A stretch of DNA of 64,000 bases from a virus (IMGVR_UViG_3300028176_000002:32497-96496); one strand, 5' to 3'; positions 51,281 to 64,000 are shown, numbered from the stretch's first letter. Numbers and translations: made by a program. Notes: generated by a model from the sequence alone, not told the origin.

Positions 51281-51526
51281 TTAGAATTCATTTTCATTTT
51301 CCTCATTAACTTTCTTCATATAAGCCCGGCTACCTTTAGTTCCCTTTTCAACCTCAAACCTACTAGGCACATAATTGCCCCAATAATCCCTATGCCCCTT
51401 TAATCCAAGCATACAATAACCATTCTCTATCATATCCATAGCATATCTTCCTACACTACCCTCTAATCGCCAAGCATTACCATTATTGATTAACTTTTGG
51501 CACTCTCTTATCTCTGTTTTAGTCAT
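51281..51526 (-). CDS. 81-aa early protein, copy A
   Basis: LINNGNAWRLEGSVGRYAMDMIENGYC; AGGAG RBS. Confidence 0.75.
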   Translation of the reverse strand: MTKTEIRECQKLINNGNAWRLEGSVGRYAMDMIENGYCMLGLKGHRDYWGNYVPSRFEVEKGTKGSRAYMKKVNEENENEF

Positions 51527-51538
51527 TTAATACTCCTT
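51281..51538. repeat. ~255 bp direct repeat (partner at 56043-56300)
   Basis: Near-identical DNA, including the RBS. Confidence 0.9.
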
Positions 51539-52769
51539 TTTATATTCCAATGTTACTAAATAATATACCTGCCACCCGGTAAAATTCAAAGAATACTGCA
51601 TATACAAATACTCCTAACCCTAATAAAGCCAATAAGTAGCATAAAATAACCCCTAAAATAATAATTTTTTTCATACAACCTCCTGCTATTCAAAATTTTT
51701 GTAAATTTTGGCGTATACGCTGGGATATAAAAAATTTTTAATGGATACGCCCGATATAATTTTTAAAAAAATCATCTTGCCATCTAAAAAATTTTTTTGA
51801 GCATCTTTGTCCGGTAACATTAAAAAAATAGTATTTTTAGTCATTAAATACCTCTATTTCTGCTATCTCATTAAGGTTCTTAGTAAACCCGGTCTGTTCT
51901 GTATCATTTTCAAAAGCAATATAACCTCTATCATAACCATAATGAATTTCCGTTAATTTTTCGAATGTTTCTCTATCGCCATTGATTAAAGTAATAATTG
52001 CCCTCATTTTAATTCTCCTCTCTAATAGTTTTTAAACATTTCTCGCAAAAGTCTTTCTGTATATGGTTCTCGGGTTTCTCGCATTTGCAATATTGCTTAG
52101 GTTTCGCCCCCCAAATACTACCCCCGGTATTAAATATAGTATTTTGTTCTTTTAATTCCATTATACACCCCCAATTTTAATGTAATATAGGAATATGTTT
52201 TATATGCTCATTACATTCGCAATCTGTGGTAGTCGTGCATTTACATTTATCGCAATAATAACCCTCTACAAAATCCTCTCCACTTGAAAATGCTTGAGAT
52301 TCTGTTTTAAATATTCTATCGCTACATAAACTTAACCATACCTTTTTTAACATTTTCCACCCCCTATTATTTCATTCTTAAAGCTGAAAATTTCATTATC
52401 ATTGCCCCGATTTCTAAAATTATAGTTCCTATTCTGAAAAGTAATCTCATTTTATTCTCCTTATTCTTCTGTTTCAATTAAATTTACACATTTACCACAA
52501 TGCCCGATATACATTTCCGGGTATTCTACACAATTCTGACATAAAGAATATTGTAAATCATTCGCCAATTCTTCTGTGGTAACTTCTTCCTTATCTTCTA
52601 CTCCTAATTCCTTGATTATATCTGTCCTAGTCATTTGTTTCTCCTTTTAATTCCGCTTTTTCTATTCTACTTCTTATTCTGTATTCATAAAAAGCATTAT
52701 CTTTATCCATTTGTTCTCGTTTCATTTGCAATATTAATTTTTTCATTATATCCATTTTGTATCTCCTTT

Positions 52770-53369
52770 TTATATATAGAGTATTAACTCTTTCTGTTTC
52801 GTTTCTTTTCTTAAATAGTCCAATAGGAATTGCAACCCAACATTCGCTACAATTGAATTTCCTAATTGTATATTTTTTTCTAAAATATCTTCTTTTCTTT
52901 GACAAGAACCTTTTAAATTATTTTCGGTAGTCAAATTGATATACTTATTATCTATATCCAATTCCTTTGATGTTAAATAAGCAAAAATTGATTTCCCATT
53001 CGCCCTTAAATCTAATAAAGGTTTCCCGGATTCTAAAGCGATTAATCTTGTCGTATTATTATCCACACACAAAACTATCAAATCATACCCGGATAACTGC
53101 CCGGGATTCTCTATTTTGTCGTGGATTGCCTTATACCCGGTCAAATCTGACATTACATCTGCCTTATTCAACCCTAAATGCTCAATATCATAGGTTGTAT
53201 ATGATAAATTTTTCTCCTCTACTATATCCATATCGAATAAATCTATCCCCATAACATTGATTCTATCAAGCCCGGATATATCCTTTTTAATTAACTCGGA
53301 TAATCCCCGGGTAAAATAAGAGCCGATTCCCCCTTGCCCTACGATTGCGATTTTTAAATTATCTTTCAT
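52770..53369 (-). CDS. ThiF/MoeB/E1-like adenylating enzyme
   Basis: IVGQGGIG, DMDIVEEKNL, NKA, CVDN..R, GSCQ. Confidence 0.9.
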   Translation of the reverse strand: MKDNLKIAIVGQGGIGSYFTRGLSELIKKDISGLDRINVMGIDLFDMDIVEEKNLSYTTYDIEHLGLNKADVMSDLTGYKAIHDKIENPGQLSGYDLIVLCVDNNTTRLIALESGKPLLDLRANGKSIFAYLTSKELDIDNKYINLTTENNLKGSCQRKEDILEKNIQLGNSIVANVGLQFLLDYLRKETKQKELILYI

Positions 53370-53456
53370 TTTAAAATCTCCTTATAATTTTATAAAGCCG
53401 GGGTAGAGTTTTGTTTCTTTCGGTAAACCCTACCCATTCCCGGGTAATGGGATAGT

Positions 53457-53651
53457 TTAGCCACCAATTAAACTATCCGTAACTACAATTTCTCTAGGCA
53501 TTTCCGTAATTCCGTCTAAAGTAACCTCGCTGACAAAATTTCCGTCTGCGAAAACAAACTTGTCCTTTAGGTTCACTTTTTCTTTTAATTCTGCGATTGT
53601 TTCTACTGCTAATTCTGTATGCCCACTCTCGTCTAATACTATTACTTTCAT
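53457..53651 (-). CDS. Ubiquitin-like (beta-grasp) protein
   Basis: 64 aa, beta-beta-alpha-beta pattern, ends ...SLIGG*; directly upstream of the E1-like gene. Confidence 0.75.
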   Translation of the reverse strand: MKVIVLDESGHTELAVETIAELKEKVNLKDKFVFADGNFVSEVTLDGITEMPREIVVTDSLIGG

Positions 53652-53693
53652 TTTATCCCCCTTTCTAGTTAAGCCCTCTAATCTTTATAAGCA

Positions 53694-53722
53694 AGTATAA
53701 CATATTTTCCGGGCTTTGTCAA
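53694..53722 (-). promoter_or_regulatory. Sigma70-type early promoter
   Basis: TTGACA-17-TATACT with TG extension. Confidence 0.85.
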
Positions 53723-53741
53723 GCCCCGGATAAAATATATT

Positions 53742-53891
53742 TTAATCTAAACTTCCCCCGGCTAGAAAAAATGCCTTTCTATAAGCCACCCGGGTTTTCC
53801 AATTGTCTAAATTTTCTATCGCTGTCCAAATTACTTTACTGCCGGATTGTTCGATTTTTTCTTTCATTAAATCTAAATCAATTTCTTCCAT
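53742..53891 (-). CDS. 49-aa hypothetical protein
   Basis: Manual translation MEEIDLDLMKEKIEQSGSKVIWTAIE...; resembles the C-terminus of 50517-50852. Confidence 0.55.
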   Translation of the reverse strand: MEEIDLDLMKEKIEQSGSKVIWTAIENLDNWKTRVAYRKAFFLAGGSLD

Positions 53892-53904
53892 AATTTCCCC
53901 CTTT

Positions 53905-55566
53905 TTAATGTATCGTATATATCTGTTCTCTTAAATTTCCGTCATTTAACATACATATACAAAACTGCAATAATTTATCAAACTTACATAAGTATTTCCC
54001 CTCTTTAGTTTTCTCCTCGATACATACATAATCGTTTGCCGGAAAAGTCCAAACTCCGCAATTTTCTTCGTCTTTCATTTTTACCAAATAATTTTTTAAT
54101 TTTCCTTTAACAATATATCCACCCTCTTTTTTAAATACTCGGGTTTTATTCTTCTCTAAAAATTCATTGAATAAATTTTCGGCTCTTTCTTCTGCTAATC
54201 TTCGTTTTTCTACATATCCTTGAATCTTACCAATTAAAATATCCTCTAATATCTTCCCGGCTTTTAATGTATCACAAATCCCGGATATAGAACTTAATCC
54301 ACCACCTCGCAAATCATATGATAATGTTTTAATATCTTTATATCCTCTTTTTACTGAAAAAGTATCAATGTTTACTTGCCAATTTTCCTTATCTTCTGCG
54401 GTAAAATTAAAGTTTATAGGTATGCTCAACCCATTTAATTTAATCTCTATGGTCTTACCCTCTAACAATTCCAATTGTGTGCCGGAGAATAGCCGGATTT
54501 TCTCTAAATAGTCCTCTAAGTTCGTCAATCTATGTATTAAAGTATTTTTATCTGTGCCACTCCACCTACCACCCCGGATAAATTCTATTGCTTTTCGCAT
54601 TTTTTGAATAGGTATCTTTATTCCATTTATAGTAAATCTTGATTTTCCCTTATCATTAACTTTGTTTTCTATCCTTACTTCTTTTAAAAATACTTCTGCT
54701 TTTGTTTCCGGGTCATAAGAATAAACTTTAAATCTTAACCACTTTTTAGGTAAATTTTCTAATTGTTTTTCAATCGGTTCGTCATATTTTCCACATTGAT
54801 AACACCTCTCTAAATCATTTAAAAAATCTTCATATCCTATTTCGATAAATTTCCCGGAATATACGCTATCTCTGACTAATTGTTCTTTCTTAAAAATATT
54901 TACTACTTTATCCCGGAATTCAATTTTAAAACCACTATCTTTATCAATAAAATAATTATCCTTAATTATCGTTCCCTTATCTTCTAATATGGTCATTTTA
55001 TCATACTGCCGGATTAAAGATTCTAATTTTTCTTCTTCTTCATTACCTTTAATTTTCTCTTGCTTTTCTTGATTCTCGATTTCTTTTTCTTCTGCCTGTA
55101 TCTGTGCAATTCTATTTTTAATTTTAACTAAATCTTCATTGAAAATTAAACTACAATCTAATTTATCTATATCTGCAATCGCTTTTAAATTCATACCTAC
55201 CTTATCTTTATAGTTTTCAAAATTTATTATTTCTGTGTCGGTTATAATAAGGTCATTATAAAAATATAACTTTGATTTTTCGTGATTATAATAACCTTTG
55301 TTTTCGTCAAAAGTAACTGCTCTCCCGGTATCTAAATAATTATATATCGCTGATTCACTTGTAACCATATATAAGGTTCTTCCCATACAAAAAACCCGGG
55401 TATTCTGGTCATATTGAAAAACCTTTAATCTTAAACTATCGCTACTATCTTTTATATCCTCTTGCTTAAAAAAATCCGGCTCTAAAACTTCCTTACCTAA
55501 ATTTATTTTCTGCCATATCCTTAAATAAGTGGTTTCTGTGTTCTCTATCGTATATGTTCTAATCAT
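53905..55566 (-). CDS. 553-aa early protein with Cys-containing C-terminal domain
   Basis: Long ORF with its own promoter; C-terminus IVKGKLKNY...VCI...DKLL...LND. Confidence 0.75.
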   Translation of the reverse strand: MIRTYTIENTETTYLRIWQKINLGKEVLEPDFFKQEDIKDSSDSLRLKVFQYDQNTRVFCMGRTLYMVTSESAIYNYLDTGRAVTFDENKGYYNHEKSKLYFYNDLIITDTEIINFENYKDKVGMNLKAIADIDKLDCSLIFNEDLVKIKNRIAQIQAEEKEIENQEKQEKIKGNEEEEKLESLIRQYDKMTILEDKGTIIKDNYFIDKDSGFKIEFRDKVVNIFKKEQLVRDSVYSGKFIEIGYEDFLNDLERCYQCGKYDEPIEKQLENLPKKWLRFKVYSYDPETKAEVFLKEVRIENKVNDKGKSRFTINGIKIPIQKMRKAIEFIRGGRWSGTDKNTLIHRLTNLEDYLEKIRLFSGTQLELLEGKTIEIKLNGLSIPINFNFTAEDKENWQVNIDTFSVKRGYKDIKTLSYDLRGGGLSSISGICDTLKAGKILEDILIGKIQGYVEKRRLAEERAENLFNEFLEKNKTRVFKKEGGYIVKGKLKNYLVKMKDEENCGVWTFPANDYVCIEEKTKEGKYLCKFDKLLQFCICMLNDGNLREQIYTIH

Positions 55567-55593
55567 TTTTAAATCTCCTTTTGTTTATAGTTA

Positions 55594-55622
55594 AGTATAA
55601 CATTTTATTTTCCTTTTGTCAA
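55594..55622 (-). promoter_or_regulatory. Sigma70-type early promoter
   Basis: TTGACA-17-TATACT. Confidence 0.85.
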
Positions 55623-55895
55623 GCCCCGGGCTTTTAATTTTTTTAAGTGTATTTTTAGGTTCTCAATGCTGTGATTATATAACTTGATTCCGTATAGGCT
55701 ACATTCCGGGTCAAGTCTTAATATTTCGTCTACTAGGGGCTTTTTGGCTAGGTCTATCACTTCTTTTTCTGCAATCTGCCCCTTTAGGTCTTTAATTTCC
55801 CTTTTAATCTCTTTCCGGGCTTTACTCTTAGCCGGAAAGTCTTTAATTGATTTCCTTAGTCTTCTGATTTCCTTGCGGATTTCATTCTCGGTCAT
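55605..55895 (-). CDS. Basic helical hypothetical protein
   Basis: ORF with GAGG RBS. Confidence 0.6.
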   Translation of the reverse strand: MTENEIRKEIRRLRKSIKDFPAKSKARKEIKREIKDLKGQIAEKEVIDLAKKPLVDEILRLDPECSLYGIKLYNHSIENLKIHLKKLKARGLTKGK

Positions 55896-56042
55896 TCTAA
55901 CACCTCAATAGGTTTTACCAAAATATCCTTTACACCTCTTAACCTTAAATCATTTATATAGGTCAATGCTTGTCTATAACTCGCCCCGGATATATAAACT
56001 CTTTCTGCTTGAGTAACTCTCCAATTCTTTTTTAAATAAATT

Positions 56043-56288
56043 TTAGAATTCATTTTCATTTTCCTCATTAACTTTCTTCATATAATCCCGGCTACCTTTA
56101 GTTCCCTTTTCCACCTCAAACCTACTAGGCACATAACCACCATAAGCATTTCTTTGCCCCTTTAGTCCAAGCATACAATAGCCATTCTCTATCATATCCA
56201 TAGCATATCTTCCTACACTACCCTCTAATCGCCAAGCATTACCATTATTGATTAACTTTTGGCACTCTCTTATCTCTGTTTTAGTCAT
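56043..56288 (-). CDS. 81-aa early protein, copy B
   Basis: Paralogue of 51281-51526. Confidence 0.75.
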   Translation of the reverse strand: MTKTEIRECQKLINNGNAWRLEGSVGRYAMDMIENGYCMLGLKGQRNAYGGYVPSRFEVEKGTKGSRDYMKKVNEENENEF

Positions 56289-56391
56289 TTTATACTCCTT
56301 TAGTAATGTTATTCAAATCCCAAATCTTTATACAAGAAAACTCTCTTTCTGTAACTCTTTCTGCGATAAACAAATCACTTCCACAATCGCA

Positions 56392-56580
56392 TTATATCCC
56401 CCTTAATATAACCCCGGATTCACTTAAATATCCCCGGATTATCAAACTATTAACAAACTTCCCAAATCCTAAATCCCAAACCTTGCCGGATTTCAATAGG
56501 TAACTAAATAATTCTAACACCTCTTGCCCTCTTAAAGTTCCGGCTTTATACTTGTCAATGGATTCCAATTCGTTAATCAT
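56392..56580 (-). CDS. Small early protein (paralogue of 56926-57207)
   Basis: LFSYLLKSG..W.L......LI..GY.SESG.IL. Confidence 0.65.
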   Translation of the reverse strand: MINELESIDKYKAGTLRGQEVLELFSYLLKSGKVWDLGFGKFVNSLIIRGYLSESGVILRGI

Positions 56581-56680
56581 TATATACCCGTAATATATTG
56601 TTCCATTGATAAAGGTTCTAAATCTTGCCCGGCTCTTGATTCGTTCTCTACTGCTAACCCTCTGTAAATATTAGCTAAAA

Positions 56681-56929
56681 TTAAATCCCACATTTTACAC
56701 CCCCCTCGGTTAAAAATTCTAATTCATTCGTTAATGGATTAAATAATCTTTTTGTATAATGTTTTTCACTCCAATTTTTACCACTCTCGGCTACAATTAA
56801 AAATTTTCCGTCTTTTTGTTTATAAACCTTAAAACTTTTTAATGATTGCCCGGCAAACTTCATATTGTTTTTACTAAAAAAATAAGGTTCTGTTTCTTTA
56901 GTTCTTTCTTTTATCTCATATATGGTCAT
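56681..56929 (-). CDS. Small early hypothetical protein
   Basis: YFFSK..MKF.GQ motif; packed in the operon. Confidence 0.6.
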   Translation of the reverse strand: MTIYEIKERTKETEPYFFSKNNMKFAGQSLKSFKVYKQKDGKFLIVAESGKNWSEKHYTKRLFNPLTNELEFLTEGGVKCGI

Positions 56930-57207
56930 TTTTCCACCTCGTCAAATTCTTTTAAAATCTCCCCGGAATCTGATATATAGCCGGATTCTATTAAAGCCCT
57001 TGCGGTTCGCTGATAACTGCCTTGTAACCCGGCAATTATATTGCTTTTTACCAATTCACTAAATAAAACTAATATATCATTTTCCTTTAACTCCCCGGAT
57101 TCATAAGCGATTATATTCCCGGTAAAATCGTAAAACTTTGCTTTTTCTTTTTTCACTTTATCCCCCTTTTTTATCTTTCCTTTTATATCCATAATAAATA
57201 CTAACAT
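56926..57207 (-). CDS. Small early protein (likely GTG start 57156)
   Basis: YESGEL...LFSELVKS...LQGSYQRTARALIESGY. Confidence 0.65.
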   Translation of the reverse strand: MLVFIMDIKGKIKKGDKVKKEKAKFYDFTGNIIAYESGELKENDILVLFSELVKSNIIAGLQGSYQRTARALIESGYISDSGEILKEFDEVEK

Positions 57208-57226
57208 ATTTTCCGGGCTTTGTCAA
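57198..57226 (-). promoter_or_regulatory. Sigma70-type early promoter
   Basis: TTGACA-17-TAGTAT; 27 bp identical to the promoter region at 53700-53726. Confidence 0.7.
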
Positions 57227-57235
57227 GCCCTCTGT

Positions 57236-57475
57236 CTAAAATAATTTTATCCTTTTTTCCAAATTATACAAAGCCCATAATGGTTGTAAATTCGTGTAAT
57301 GAAAACATAGGGCTTGTTCTCCCGGCTCACTTAAATTAAAGGAATTACAGGGCTTTATATGGTCAATATGCCACTCGGTCAAGCCCTTGCCATTATCCCC
57401 CTTAACCCCAATATCTCCATTTACTTTTGCTTTATACATTTTTACCCCCTTTTTGATTACTCTTGCCGATTTCAT
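57236..57475 (-). pseudogene. Chimeric ORF carrying only the C-terminal fragment of the NLQPLW HNH family
   Basis: WHIDHIKPC...PGEQALCFHYTNLQPLWAL, closest to 42269-42841. Confidence 0.65.
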
Positions 57476-58478
57476 AGGATAACCGGCAACCCTTAACCCC
57501 TAAAATCTTTTTATCAATGTATTTTATATCCCGGAATAAACAAACTACCTTAAAGCCATTATTCCCGGATATTCCAAAATATCCCAATTTTTTAACATAT
57601 ACTAGAATTTCATTAAAATTTTTCCCGGAATCTTTTAAATTTTTCGGGTCTTTTTCAAAATCGTAAATCTTGCCCGGTTCGATTTCCGCAATATAAACAT
57701 ATTTCGCCCCGGCTAAAAAATTTTCCTTGCCCTTACCTATATAAAAAAAACTCCGGGCTAAATTCGATTCCCGGATTGATTCCTTAGTATAATGATTCTT
57801 GCCAAAATAACCCGGCTCAATTTTACCCTTAAAATCTTGATTGCTATAATGATATAATTTAATCTTTTTGGTATTATCCCCGGCATATAGCGAAAATGCC
57901 CGGGCTATTGCCGGGCTTAATACTTCCGGGCTATGCTCTAGGGCTATTGCCGGGCTTAATACTTCCGGGCTATGCTCTAGGGCTATTGCCGGGCTTAATA
58001 CTTCCGGGCTAGATTCGCCGGCAAAATCAAAAACTTTTTGCCCTTGCAAAATTTTATCCCTTGCGAAAGAATCACAATTTATTTCACGAGTTAAATTATC
58101 ATAACCCGTAAAATTTTCTTGATGTTTTAGTAAATAGTGCCCGATTTCGTGATATATAACAAACAAAAGATATTTTCTAATCCCTTTTATTTTTGCCGGG
58201 ATATATCTACCTTGTGGTAATAACCCGGGATTCTTATATATATTGATTATTTGTTTTATATTTATATCTAATTGCCAATCGTAATTTTCCGCCCGGCTTA
58301 TACTCCGCCGGCTCGATAATTTTGTATTATTATCCCCGGATTCATAATCGTATAATCTAACTTTTAAAATTTTAGGTAATTCTTTTTTATGTCTTAAAAT
58401 AAAATCGGTTATATACCTATATAATCGGGGATATTCTTTTTTTACTAGATTAGATTCTTTATTATTGAATTTTATCAT
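57432..58478 (-). CDS. Two-domain early protein: HExxH metallopeptidase-like plus possible ADP-ribosyltransferase-like domain
   Basis: HEIGH...E..CD.FA; repeat linker; LYHYS...SFFY...GYFG. Confidence 0.5.
   Translation of the reverse strand: MIKFNNKESNLVKKEYPRLYRYITDFILRHKKELPKILKVRLYDYESGDNNTKLSSRRSISRAENYDWQLDINIKQIINIYKNPGLLPQGRYIPAKIKGIRKYLLFVIYHEIGHYLLKHQENFTGYDNLTREINCDSFARDKILQGQKVFDFAGESSPEVLSPAIALEHSPEVLSPAIALEHSPEVLSPAIARAFSLYAGDNTKKIKLYHYSNQDFKGKIEPGYFGKNHYTKESIRESNLARSFFYIGKGKENFLAGAKYVYIAEIEPGKIYDFEKDPKNLKDSGKNFNEILVYVKKLGYFGISGNNGFKVVCLFRDIKYIDKKILGVKGCRLSYEIGKSNQKGGKNV
57902..58011. repeat. 39-bp tandem repeat, ~3 copies, in frame (SPEVLSPAIALEH)
   Basis: Unit gggctattgccgggcttaatacttccgggctatgctcta. 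Confidence 0.9.
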
Positions 58479-58479
58479 T

Positions 58480-59238
58480 TTATAACCCCTTTATAAATGC
58501 TTTTTTATAACAAAATTTTCTAAAACTTGTCCTATATAGCGGTTTTGATTCTATTATTTTTTCAATACTTCTTTTTTCTTTTAATTCTTGCCTTGTTTTA
58601 GGTAAATCTAGTTCGGTTTTTTCTAATGTTAAATGTAATGCTTTTAAATTAAAACTGCTTATTTTATACCCCATATCAATTTTTACTTTAGTTTTATGCC
58701 CAAATATAGCAATTTCTAAAACCTTGCCAATTGTTTTAGAATTCCCAATTGTTACAATATCATTTATTTTAATCATTTTATCCCCCTAAATATTGGTAAA
58801 AATTTCTATATAATATCTTCCATTATCCCGGTATATTGTAAGCCCGGAATTTTCTTTTAAATCCGCTTTAATCGTATTTTTTAAATCTTCTTTTTTAACT
58901 TCCTTAATGATTCTATGCGGTAAAATTACTATTTTATCCCGGGAATAATAAACATAACCTACATTCCCAATTTTATAAAATATGCAATCTTGCGTTTTTC
59001 CATTAGTTTTAATCTGTTTTAATAAATCAAGGTAATTATAAAAATTCGATTGATAATAAATCCCCTCAATTGATTGATTATATTCCCGGCAATCAATTAA
59101 ATCGGATTCAATCTTCCCGGATTCATTAGCCCATAATCCCCGGGCTAGATTCTGTTTTCCGTATTTTCTTTTATTTACCGGGATAAAAACTACGATTTTT
59201 TGATTCAATCCTTTTGTATTCATAAGTAATAATAACAT
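58480..59238 (-). CDS. First two early genes (58480-58776, 58786-59238), hypothetical
   Basis: Co-oriented ORFs downstream of a promoter. Confidence 0.6.
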
Positions 59239-59257
59239 TTATTTTTATAAAAATCAA
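59229..59257 (-). promoter_or_regulatory. Sigma70-type promoter at the start of the early region
   Basis: TTGATT-17-TATTAT with TG extension; the ATG at 59223 would be roughly leaderless. Confidence 0.55.
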
Positions 59258-60431
59258 GGGCTAGAGATAAAATATTTTTTATGCTATAACCTATTGAATA
59301 ACAATCATTTATAACAATTGATTATAACTATTTTATAACTATTTTATTTTATTACATAAACAATTGCAATCATTAAGGTTATAAAACCCGGTCAATTGGT
59401 TAAGTAAAGCATTGAATCGGGATTCCCGGCACTATGCCCGGCACGATTCCCGGGATAATCTAAAGAAATAAAATCAATCTAATCGGTCAAAATAGATTGA
59501 TTATAATTGAGTAATTGCCCGGGATTATTCCCGGCTAACTGAATAATAAAAAGCATTTAATTGATTAAAATAAAATCAAGATAATCATTTAAAATAAAAG
59601 CCGGATAATTGATTAAACTAATGTAAACAAGAGTAAAAATAAAATTGATTTAATGAGGTAATTTAAAAAACAGGCAAAGCCCAAATTCCCGGGCTACCTT
59701 GCCCGGATTATCTTTTATCTATACAATAAAAGCCCATTGATTATCAATTGATTATCATAAGTTATTGCAATTACTAGAGATACGGCAGGGTTAAATTTAG
59801 CAATTAAAACGATTAAAAAAAATTGCCGGTAGACTGTGTGCGGATTCCCAGAAATCATTTTTCCTAAATTCAGCCCCAATAAAAAATATAAAATCAATCA
59901 CACCATCATGTTACATTAATTCGCCATCATACATCTCCATAATTGGTCAATTCTCCCCCCGATATTATTATTAATTATCCTGTTTTTGTTTTAAATCGTT
60001 GATATCATTAATGTTATATTTAGTTTTGACAATTCCAGTGTCAACTTCCCAGCAAGTTCCCGGTAAAACAATCAATTTTAGGTGTTTTTTCGGTGTTGTA
60101 AGTCGTTGTGCTGCAATATGTTATTCGGCAGCCCCCGGCATGTTATTTTTAGCAAAAAGGAGTGTCAAGATACAGGACAGTGTGTCTAATATATTAAACA
60201 CATGTCTATTATATTAGACTTATATATCTATCCAAATTTTTAGAGATATGCTATATTTTTCTTCAAAATCTTATATATCGGGTACGATTATTAAAGAATT
60301 AGCGGAATTTCTTCATTAAACGATTCTATTATTAAAGTTTATGCTAGATAGGGTCTAATTACTAATTAAATACTACTGAATACTATTCCAGTATTACATC
60401 TACGTCATTGCTATCATTAATTTTAGGTCAA

Positions 60432-63185: not shown

Positions 63186-63464
63186 ATGGCTGATAAGAAT
63201 ATAAAAATAAATTTTGTCGATGCCCAAGCAATTAGAGTAAAATTGCACGAGGGAATTCAAGGAACTGTTGGTGCTACTGGTACAACCGGTGCAGCGTCTA
63301 CTATTCCTGGACCTATCGGTACAACAGGTGCAATCGGAACAACAGGTCCAGCAGCTACAGACCATAATTTATTAACTAATAAAGATTATGTTCATGCGGG
63401 GCATACTGGTTTTCAAAAACAATTAGTATATTCACCAGATTTTAAATGTTATGAGATTGAATAA
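63186..63464 (+). CDS. Short collagen-like virion protein
   Basis: GXY repeats; H..L...DY...GHTGF motif. Confidence 0.65.
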   Translation: MADKNIKINFVDAQAIRVKLHEGIQGTVGATGTTGAASTIPGPIGTTGAIGTTGPAATDHNLLTNKDYVHAGHTGFQKQLVYSPDFKCYEIE

Positions 63465-63543
63465 ACAGAGAAAAGATATTATCTGTTTTTTTCCGTAAGG
63501 AAAATTTGATGAGAAAGAAAAATCAACAAAAAGGAGAATTAAG

Positions 63544-64000
63544 ATGGCAATTAAAAGAATTGCGGTCATGGATGAGTTTCCGTTTCAACCGAATGCGTTA
63601 GCTTTTATAACACATGCGGATTTAGCAACAATGGCTGGTGGTACTACAGTAAAAGGAGCGAGATACATTGTTAGCGATGCTGGTGCTAATCAATATAAAA
63701 TTGCTTATTTTACTGATACTATCGGAAGTTTAGTGTATTTAGTTCCAACCGTCGGGTGGTTAATATTTGTTGAAGATGCAGATAAATATTATAAATACAT
63801 TACTTCTTGGACTGAGTACATTGGGCAGCAAGGTATCGCAGGTACCACAGGTGCTGTAGGTGCTGACGGTACTACAGGTGCAGTTGGAACTACAGGTGCT
63901 GTAGGTGCTGACGGTACTACAGGTGCAGTTGGAACTACAGGTGCTGTAGGTGCTGACGGTACTACAGGTGCAGTTGGAACTACAGGTGCTGTAGGTGCTG
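63544..64000 (+). CDS. Thr-rich collagen-like fibre protein (partial)
   Basis: Not in the ORF track. AGGAG RBS; [12 protein letters not shown]...GARYIV...GW..., then GTTGAVGAD repeats (45-bp unit). Confidence 0.8.

Follow-up and report, generated by a model that had tools for sequence, protein, structure and literature searches.

The Chi words of the bacterial helicase-nucleases AddAB and RecBCD are short (AGCGG, GAAGCGG, GCTGGTGG) and, to our knowledge, all G-rich. Other short words are the KOPS/SRS of FtsK/SpoIIIE, which occur chromosome-wide at about 0.1 per kb, polarised toward dif, and for which we know of no phage role, and the GGAG sites of the T4 endoribonuclease RegB, which lie in early mRNAs, few per gene and mainly in ribosome-binding sites. 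Here we analyze a stretch of 64,000 nucleotides, called the window in the following (bases 32,497-96,496 of the 96,496-bp IMG/VR virus record IMGVR_UViG_3300028176_000002, or G000; positions are counted from the first base of the window), from an uncultured phage whose early genes are densely covered with a CCGG-containing word of the same size as Chi. The word is akin to KOPS/SRS, which a translocating motor reads in one orientation and which are likewise short and G-rich, and to the RegB sites, where a short word separates early from later transcripts; unlike the latter, it is found in all reading frames and is undepleted from the later genes of this phage.

Phages LLS of E. coli, MD8 of Pseudomonas and P1 carry many co-oriented Chi sites, 8-mers identical to the known Chi of their host, at about 0.5-1 site per kb; in LLS and MD8 the sites are clustered at one end, and the Chi-rich lambdoid phages are those without a recombination module (Zheng et al. 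2025, PMC12315714). Stoperators, found in the temperate cluster A mycobacteriophages, are asymmetric 13-bp sites for a known repressor (gp71 in L5), of which somewhat more than 20 per genome are dispersed over short intergenic spaces genome-wide, oriented with transcription and present also in promoters (PMC9283540). In the Bacillus phage SPbeta, MrpR reads the SPBRE, a 15-bp motif repeated in early promoter regions, at about ten promoters only and not through coding sequence (PMC10516654). The locus described here resembles the Chi-rich phages in that a short word stands far above chance, is unexplained by codon usage, lies mostly one way round and is clustered in one part of the genome. With the stoperators it shares many dispersed, asymmetric sites, some of them in promoters and, in relatives, oriented along transcription beyond the compositional skew, and with the SPBRE a repeated element in early promoter regions. 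In contrast to the stoperators, the word measures only 5-8 nt, is present in 40-175 copies, lies mostly in open reading frames (ORFs) and is confined to the early module; in contrast to the SPBRE, it runs through coding sequence.

The window contains 180 CCGG sites. Between positions 53,000 and 60,150 there are 87, where the density elsewhere in the window predicts 10.7 (Poisson P = 3e-48), compared to 76 in positions 1-51,000. A first-pass annotation of the sequence had noticed this enrichment and that the DNA nevertheless stays AT-rich, and both observations hold: GC content within the zone is 27-36%, and that of the genome is 31%. The core of the zone (52900-60140, minus strand) comprises the early genes and their promoters at a density of about 12 CCGG per kb, and 72 of its 87 sites lie within CCSGG. 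Its promoter-side edge is at about 60,135-60,140. At the far side, the density drops stepwise at about 52,900 to a low shoulder (51300-52899, minus strand), in which seven sites, extending to 51,326, are found among small ORFs downstream of an E1-like gene.

The enrichment is a feature of the nucleotide sequence. As had been proposed, protein coding does not account for it, nor does codon usage. Although 69 of the 87 sites (79%) are inside ORFs, all three frames are used (33/24/18) and 18 sites are non-coding. The ORF sites encode not only the SG, AG and PG dipeptides described in the annotation, but also TG, x-Arg (24 sites) and Pro-x (18 sites). When synonymous codons of the early ORFs were shuffled, 21.5 ± 3.2 CCGG remained (maximum 33), against 69 observed (z = 14.7), so that the enrichment survives a codon-preserving null; recoding the same proteins with the codon usage of 17 long middle genes left 7.3 ± 2.5. 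The rare codons CGG and CCG are used almost only for completing the word: a codon ending in C precedes 22 of 23 CGG codons, and 16 of 20 CCG codons stand before G, whereas none of the other arginine and proline codons showed this context preference. Non-coding sites include a cluster of nine at 59388-59703 (minus strand), three of them spaced by 12 bp, which precedes the promoter of the first conserved early gene by 130-450 bp and on the coding strand reads CCGGG only at five sites, CCCGGG at three, neither at one and CCCGG only at none; CCGG is also found in promoter spacers, so that the reported occurrence in promoters and in non-coding DNA at 59.4-59.7 kb is confirmed. The use of all frames and of non-coding DNA, together with the excess over the shuffle, shows that the enrichment was imposed at the nucleotide level. 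Since the word recurs in all frames and outside genes, DNA or RNA itself is presumably what is read; the DNA-level code of the first-pass annotation is thus supported as a nucleotide-level one.

On the plus strand, 57 of the 87 sites read CCCGG, that is CCGGG on the coding (minus) strand, which bears out the annotation that most do so; 28 read the opposite way (CCCGG on the coding strand), and 13 CCCGGG sites are counted in both orientations. With CCCGGG set aside, the coding strand carries 44 CCGGG-only and 15 CCCGG-only sites. The strand bias that had been reported is therefore seen, but in the window it does not exceed the ratio expected for a palindromic core from the G>C skew of the coding strand alone (70:30; p0 = 0.70, binomial p = 0.26), the zone being the region of strongest G>C skew in the genome. 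A bias above the skew is found in relatives only (34:2, 30:1 and 28:1, each p ~0.001), three that have homologous sites in common and hence are not independent tests. As all early genes point in the same direction, transcription and genome axis are inseparable as reference for the orientation.

In the window, the two flanks of the core come close to mirror symmetry, with about 3-fold enrichment of C on the 5' side and of G on the 3' side, and depletion of A and T, respectively, at these positions. Given that 72 of the 87 sites fit CCSGG, the selected duplex word of this phage is best described as CCSGG. The information of the word is limited to 5-8 nt, consisting of CCGGG plus up to three flanking positions. 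Neither helical nor codon periodicity was found in the placement of the sites (coefficient of variation of the spacing 1.3; distances modulo 3, 169/135/139), and a search for hairpin pairs yielded 24 close pairs of sites, against 22.5 expected under random placement. Two known targets were considered and rejected, the site of Gabija GajA (TNNNCGGGNNA), because the flanks do not fit and A is preferred where T is needed, and a CsrA-type GGA sponge, because the word GCCGGGC of one relative (G002, see below) has no GGA.

The word is set in a genome from which other palindromes have been purged. The window contains no GATC (172 expected) and no GGCC, CGCG or GCGC, CCGG being the sole GC-only palindromic tetramer present. 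Over the 96 kb of the record, GATC is likewise absent (about 285 expected), as are GGCC and CGCG; GCGC occurs only six times, and GTAC, AGCT and ACGT reach about 0.4 of their expected numbers. Avoidance of GATC, GGCC, CGCG and GCGC is as complete inside the zone as in the rest of the genome, and CCGG is 2.2-fold over-represented outside the zone, too. Close relatives differ in what they avoid (G003 has 30 GGCC, G004 has 21 GCGC), a sequence pattern that suggests fast tracking of host restriction repertoires.

The phage, which derives from lake-water metagenomes, is distant from all isolates. Neither the zone nor 20 kb of middle genes matched any of 50,697 phage records by megablast, and the best tblastn match of the DNA polymerase among isolated phages, to T4-like cyanophages, was 22% identical. 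Relatives were found with a 553-residue early protein as anchor, which yielded about 50 homologue clusters. The comparison with related genomes that the first-pass annotation had suggested was positive. G001 (109.6 kb) and G002 (97.1 kb), whose DNA polymerases are 37-41% identical to that of the window phage, have kept the zone: 47 of 49 and 35 of 38 CCGG sites, respectively, are within about 11 kb starting at the divergent switch, and outside it CCGG is as absent as GATC or CGCG. G004, a closer relative, also has the zone, and of 36 metagenome loci that surround the anchor gene, most do. Across the lineage, the zone holds 40-175 copies of the word at 4-12 per kb, with 175 CCGG in 15 kb at locus L036. 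In all four genomes, CCGGG is the top strand-specific 5-mer in the contrast between the zone and the rest of the genome, and this contrast is headed by the specific word and not by GC-only words in general. In addition, DNA contigs of a lake run, which are independent of the record, span the zone at even depth, and parts of it are represented in RNA contigs from three lake metatranscriptomes (the uncovered parts being uninformative). The possibility raised at the outset, that the zone is an imported or misassembled segment, was not borne out: it is neither, because it shares the AT-richness and the palindrome avoidance of the genome, because relatives keep it and because independent contigs span it.

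Between relatives, the word itself drifts. In G001, G002 and many metagenome loci it reads (G/A)GCCGGG(C/A), and G002 additionally has AGCCGAG at places where the window phage has CCGGG. Loci L047 and L058 have AGCCAGG (23 observed vs 0.6 expected, and 15 vs 0.4), L051 has GCCGGA, and more distant kin have TGACGGA or AGCCGA, in small samples. The word thus shifts between kin by single steps. Where the anchor protein is at least 50% identical, all words are built on a CC(N)GG core (CCSGG here, GCCSGGC, GGCCWGGCC, GCCGGA). Since CCWGG is at chance level in G000, G001 and G002, each phage has one specific word and not any CCNGG. The word also obeys the tetramers that each genome avoids, with no GGCC in this phage and no CCGG in L058, where CCAGG is used instead; its replacement where a tetramer is absent from the genome shows that avoidance acts inside the zone as well. 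At L050 we observed a second word, GAGCCTAAGCC (positions 1-130 and throughout the locus), 21 times on the coding strand (0.2-0.5 expected) and interleaved with AGCCGGG. Viral contigs scanned for triple arrays of AGCCAGG or GCCGGG gave, among the matches listed, none like this lineage; these were mostly coding repeats that are GC-rich or belong to giant viruses.

Single sites turn over quickly. Orthologous genes have only a quarter to half of their sites in common, and sites are gained through synonymous (TCC CGG vs TCT AGG) as well as non-synonymous changes (K to R). In the invariant DTGR peptide of the anchor protein, the word is written ACC GGG AGA here and ACx GGC CGG GCx in relatives, which in sequence terms are two routes to the same word. 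Spacing is near random, without an excess of close pairs. Superimposed are tandem micro-arrays with spacings down to 5-13 nt: nine copies of GCAAAGCCAGGG immediately preceding a promoter in L058, eight copies of a 13-mer in L050, and fifteen copies in 130 nt in L047 (5740-5879), 5-8 nt apart and starting right after a stop codon. Their counterparts in the window are a 39-bp tandem repeat (57902-58011, minus strand; 2.8 copies, 100% identical, about nine CCGG) and, upstream of the promoter of the first gene, the cluster at 59.39-59.70 kb with its 12-bp spacing. Site turnover, random spacing and tandem arrays together indicate that selection acts on the number of copies and not on their positions. 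Our comparisons thus show a word imposed at the nucleotide level, under selection for copy number and drifting between relatives.

The strong host-type promoters of the genome (TTGACA-N14-TGnTATACT) form a single cluster, and this coincides with the zone. The promoters are very uniform, with 71 instances of this form across all loci. On the minus strand of the window, TTGACA-17-TAGTAT with TG at 57198-57226 has CCGG within its spacer, TTGACA-17-TATACT with TG at 55594-55622 is adjoined at the -35 box by CCGGGG, and the identical TTGACA-17-TATACT with TG at 53694-53722, which drives a 64-residue protein ending in Gly-Gly and a ThiF/E1-like gene, has CCGG both in the spacer and just upstream of the -35 box. 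A promoter-like site upstream of the first early gene (TTGATT-17-TATTAT with TG, 59229-59257, minus strand) is preceded by a box, ctctagccc, common to G004, and a putative one (TTGACA-17-TAACAT, 60140-60168, minus strand), directly followed by CCGGGGG, marks the upstream edge of the zone. As most promoters lack the word and others have it only occasionally, in the spacer or at the -35 box, it is not a promoter element. In terms of genes, the zone begins with the first early gene, includes the ThiF/E1-like gene and continues for about 2 kb after it; further small genes, without the word, come next. This immediate-early module of roughly 7-11 kb, with all strong host-type promoters, is thus shown to be overwritten with a short word, and we infer that the word is a cis-acting signal on nucleic acid, read by a machine with short, species-variable specificity.

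The genes of the module are on the minus strand. The first conserved early gene (58786-59238; 150 residues, seven CCGG) belongs to no known family. It is followed by a 348-residue ORF (57432-58478; 23 CCGG), in which the 39-bp repeats lie together with an HExxH region and a conserved domain of 130 residues. This ORF appears to be a fusion of the HExxH (HEIGH) region, three 13-residue repeats and the 130-residue domain, which in relatives is a separate gene in one or two copies. The anchor protein (53905-55566; 553 residues) has 13 CCGG, few of them at positions common to orthologues, and the ThiF/E1-like gene (52770-53369; 199 residues, six CCGG) is the last densely marked one. Searches of the early proteins against PHROGs and Pfam gave nothing besides ThiF, DUF7417 and DUF7447, and no recognizable nucleic-acid-binding fold or domain was found among them.

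For the anchor protein, neither Pfam nor PHROGs had a match, and an AlphaFold model (predicted local distance difference test, pLDDT, 78; predicted template-modelling score, pTM, 0.49) found nothing in the PDB with Foldseek at E <= 0.001. With VIA-align, residues 451-551 returned only weak rows resembling E2/RWD/UEV (Z 4.7-3.4), among them a bacterial E1-E2-Ubl complex. Directly downstream of the anchor gene are those for the Gly-Gly protein and the ThiF/E1-like protein, and the anchor protein could supply the E2 that is otherwise missing from a ubiquitin-like system of the phage. Two 81-residue paralogues (51281-51526 and 56043-56288, minus strand), 93% identical, are found at the far edge of the zone and inside it; the second matches DUF7417 weakly (23 bits, below the cut-off of 27). 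They break short-read contigs, and G001 has a single homologue at the far edge of its zone. The non-coding region 59240-59800 is dense in AATCAAT/TAATCAATTG repeats (14 in the zone vs 1.6 expected) and has tandem repeats of 11-24 bp; it could be an origin or a region bound by host factors.

From about 59.7 kb leftwards, minus-strand genes form a block about 61 kb long, and the virion genes are on the plus strand, from about 60 kb onward and across the ends of the record. Recombination-type genes are found at 17484-47349 (minus strand) and encode a RecA-like protein (PF00154, 7.6e-34), a RuvB-like protein (RuvB_N/RuvB_C), two Mre11-like metallophosphatases (Metallophos) and one Rad50-like protein (SMC_N); an ATP-dependent ligase and a 273-residue tyrosine recombinase are encoded there as well. 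The latter raises the question whether the phage is temperate or plasmid-like. The lineage offered no lead to its host: a profile search of genome contigs with an alignment of the 553-residue protein found no relative, and a protein atlas search with the RuvB-like protein found viral clusters only.

The record ends in an 85-bp direct terminal repeat (window 63544-64000 and bases 1-85 of the record), which has an internal repeat and sits within a gene for a collagen-like Gly-X-Y protein. The 111-bp terminal repeat of G002 is likewise in a collagen-like repeat, apparently in the counterpart gene. We therefore rejected the repeat as a genome terminus and regard both as assembly breaks; repeat units of the collagen-like gene may have been lost in assembly. 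A long terminal repeat or a duplication as in the first-step transfer of T5 was also rejected, as word depth is about 22 both in and outside the zone (run X1), a weak test by contig depth only. In two lake metatranscriptomes, RNA contigs are deepest over the collagen-like gene (63383-63876; word depth 25 and 7, vs 2-6 elsewhere), a depth that indicates only presence of the sequence in the RNA libraries.

Our best guess, to which we give a probability of about 0.3, is that the word is a Chi-like regulatory word for the AddAB/RecBCD helicase-nuclease of the host. We rank it first because the word is short, drifts as if following hosts and is selected for copy number, because some arrays are upstream of promoters and because Chi-rich phages provide a published precedent. 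The single-step change of the word between kin fits readers that differ between hosts, and the position of the arrays upstream of promoters in L058 and the window hints at a DNA-level reader. Arrays with 5-8 nt spacing suit a scanning enzyme that recognizes each copy probabilistically, and not proteins bound side by side. With this many copies, some in tandem micro-arrays, recognition by AddAB/RecBCD would be near-certain. Phage DNA that lies exposed at a time when no phage protein has yet been made would then be spared by the nuclease instead of destroyed, and the acquisition of spacers or guides that depends on this degradation would also be limited.

Several findings weigh against Chi. The phage encodes RecA-like, RuvB-like and Mre11/Rad50-like proteins, unlike the Chi-rich class, which has neither a recombination module nor a RecBCD inhibitor of its own, and its site density of 4-12 per kb is about ten times that of Chi-rich phages. 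The word fills a whole 7-10 kb of early genes, with tandem micro-arrays, and not a genome end; since the zone corresponds exactly to the early transcription units, a reader linked to transcription or RNA fits equally well. The strand bias in the window is no greater than compositional skew, and several relatives are densest on the promoter side, yet a G-rich Chi needs nuclease entry from the far side. Finally, whereas the Chi-rich phages carry the known Chi of their host, a matching host Chi would here have to be postulated, as would its active orientation relative to the genome ends.

Quite possibly, though at less than even odds, the zone exemplifies an undescribed, general phage device that is neither Chi nor a classical operator: the immediate-early module would be labeled with a short lineage- or host-specific word (CCSGG/CCWGG here), read by a host or phage factor and kept restriction-compatible by single-step changes. 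Such a label might, for example, mark DNA or RNA that needs different handling in the first minutes of infection.

It is rather unlikely that the zone is a roadblock or shut-off array, in which a phage DNA-binding protein would occupy the word at early promoters and along the operons and silence the early module, either when the middle genes take over or, in the case of a temperate phage, in a carrier state, much like stoperators. Such an array would account for the coincidence of the zone with the set of host-type early promoters, for the word in the spacer or at the -35 box of several of them and for its orientation along transcription in relatives, stoperators being asymmetric sites that are active in one orientation relative to transcription (PMC9283540). 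A protein of the tyrosine-recombinase family, the fold of the SPbeta master repressor MrpR, is also conserved in the lineage (PMC10516654). However, stoperators and SPBRE offer 13-15 bp of information against 5-8 nt here, and stoperators are in short intergenic spaces, whereas 79% of the sites are in ORFs. The 5-8 nt spacing in L047 is too tight for simultaneous occupation by ordinary DNA-binding domains. Middle genes contain about 17 coding-strand CCGGG and show no avoidance, and no recognizable DNA-binding domain was found in any early protein.

A label at the RNA level strikes us as unlikely. The word would then be the target of an endoribonuclease that ends early expression, as RegB does at GGAG in T4, or a sponge that titrates a host RNA-binding protein. 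The match of the zone to early transcription units speaks for it, as does a word that lies on the coding strand irrespective of frame, with arrays between cistrons and at 3' ends, such as that of L047 right after a stop codon; RNA contigs from the three metatranscriptomes are found over parts of the zone, and selection for copy number fits a sponge. A destruction mark is difficult to reconcile with the middle and late genes of this phage, where coding-strand CCGGG is not depleted (about 17 vs about 5 expected from composition). Further, the arrays in L058 and at 59.39-59.70 kb precede the nearest promoter, we found no candidate for an RNase or an RNA-binding protein, and the palindromic core with near-symmetric S flanks in this phage looks more like duplex recognition.

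CC(N)GG words are the specificities of Type II restriction-modification systems, such as NciI/BcnI, EcoRII/Dcm and HpaII. The word could therefore be the target of a host methyltransferase or endonuclease of this type (CCSGG, CCWGG, CCGG), with methylation or binding read at early promoters or the sites serving as decoys, but we consider this improbable. In its favor, the CC(N)GG core is common to all words of kin with at least 50% identity in the anchor protein, the 72 CCSGG sites match the recognition site of the NciI/BcnI type, the flank preferences of this phage are near-symmetric, and CCGG has been purged outside the zone in two relatives. Both forms in which the first-pass annotation had raised this idea have lost ground. 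Methylation by the phage is less likely because no methyltransferase domain (PF00145 or PF01555; C5 or N4/N6 type) was found in G000, G001, G002 and G004. Decoys for a restriction enzyme are less likely because tetramers absent from the genomes of this phage and its relatives are avoided inside the zone as well (no GGCC here, no CCGG in L058), and an unmodified genome becomes more, rather than less, vulnerable with every added site. In addition, the bias of the central base in relatives (34:2, 30:1) is unexpected for a symmetric reader, and the words TGACGGA and AGCCGA of distant kin lack the core.

A by-product without any reader, due to locally biased mutation or repair, to a recent import or to a need for GC clamps, is very improbable: the excess of CCGG outside the zone and the strong G>C skew within would agree with it, but a specific word and not GC-only words generally tops the k-mer contrast (generic GC clamps were rejected, as enrichment is limited to CCGG-containing words), the zone is kept at about 40% polymerase identity despite turnover of single sites, one peptide reaches the same word by two codon solutions, and palindrome avoidance in the zone equals that of the rest of the genome.

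Selection on the word overrides a near-total purge of GC palindromes, forces the use of the rare codons CGG, CCG and GGG, and changes amino acids. Selection this strong implies that the feature marks an important step of infection. Should the word be Chi-like, as we tentatively favor, the DNA that first becomes exposed in the cell would be shielded by it without the help of a protein, and the Chi word of the host would be readable from the phage genome alone. If it is a new label of the early module, it would point to a reader that acts in the first minutes of infection.

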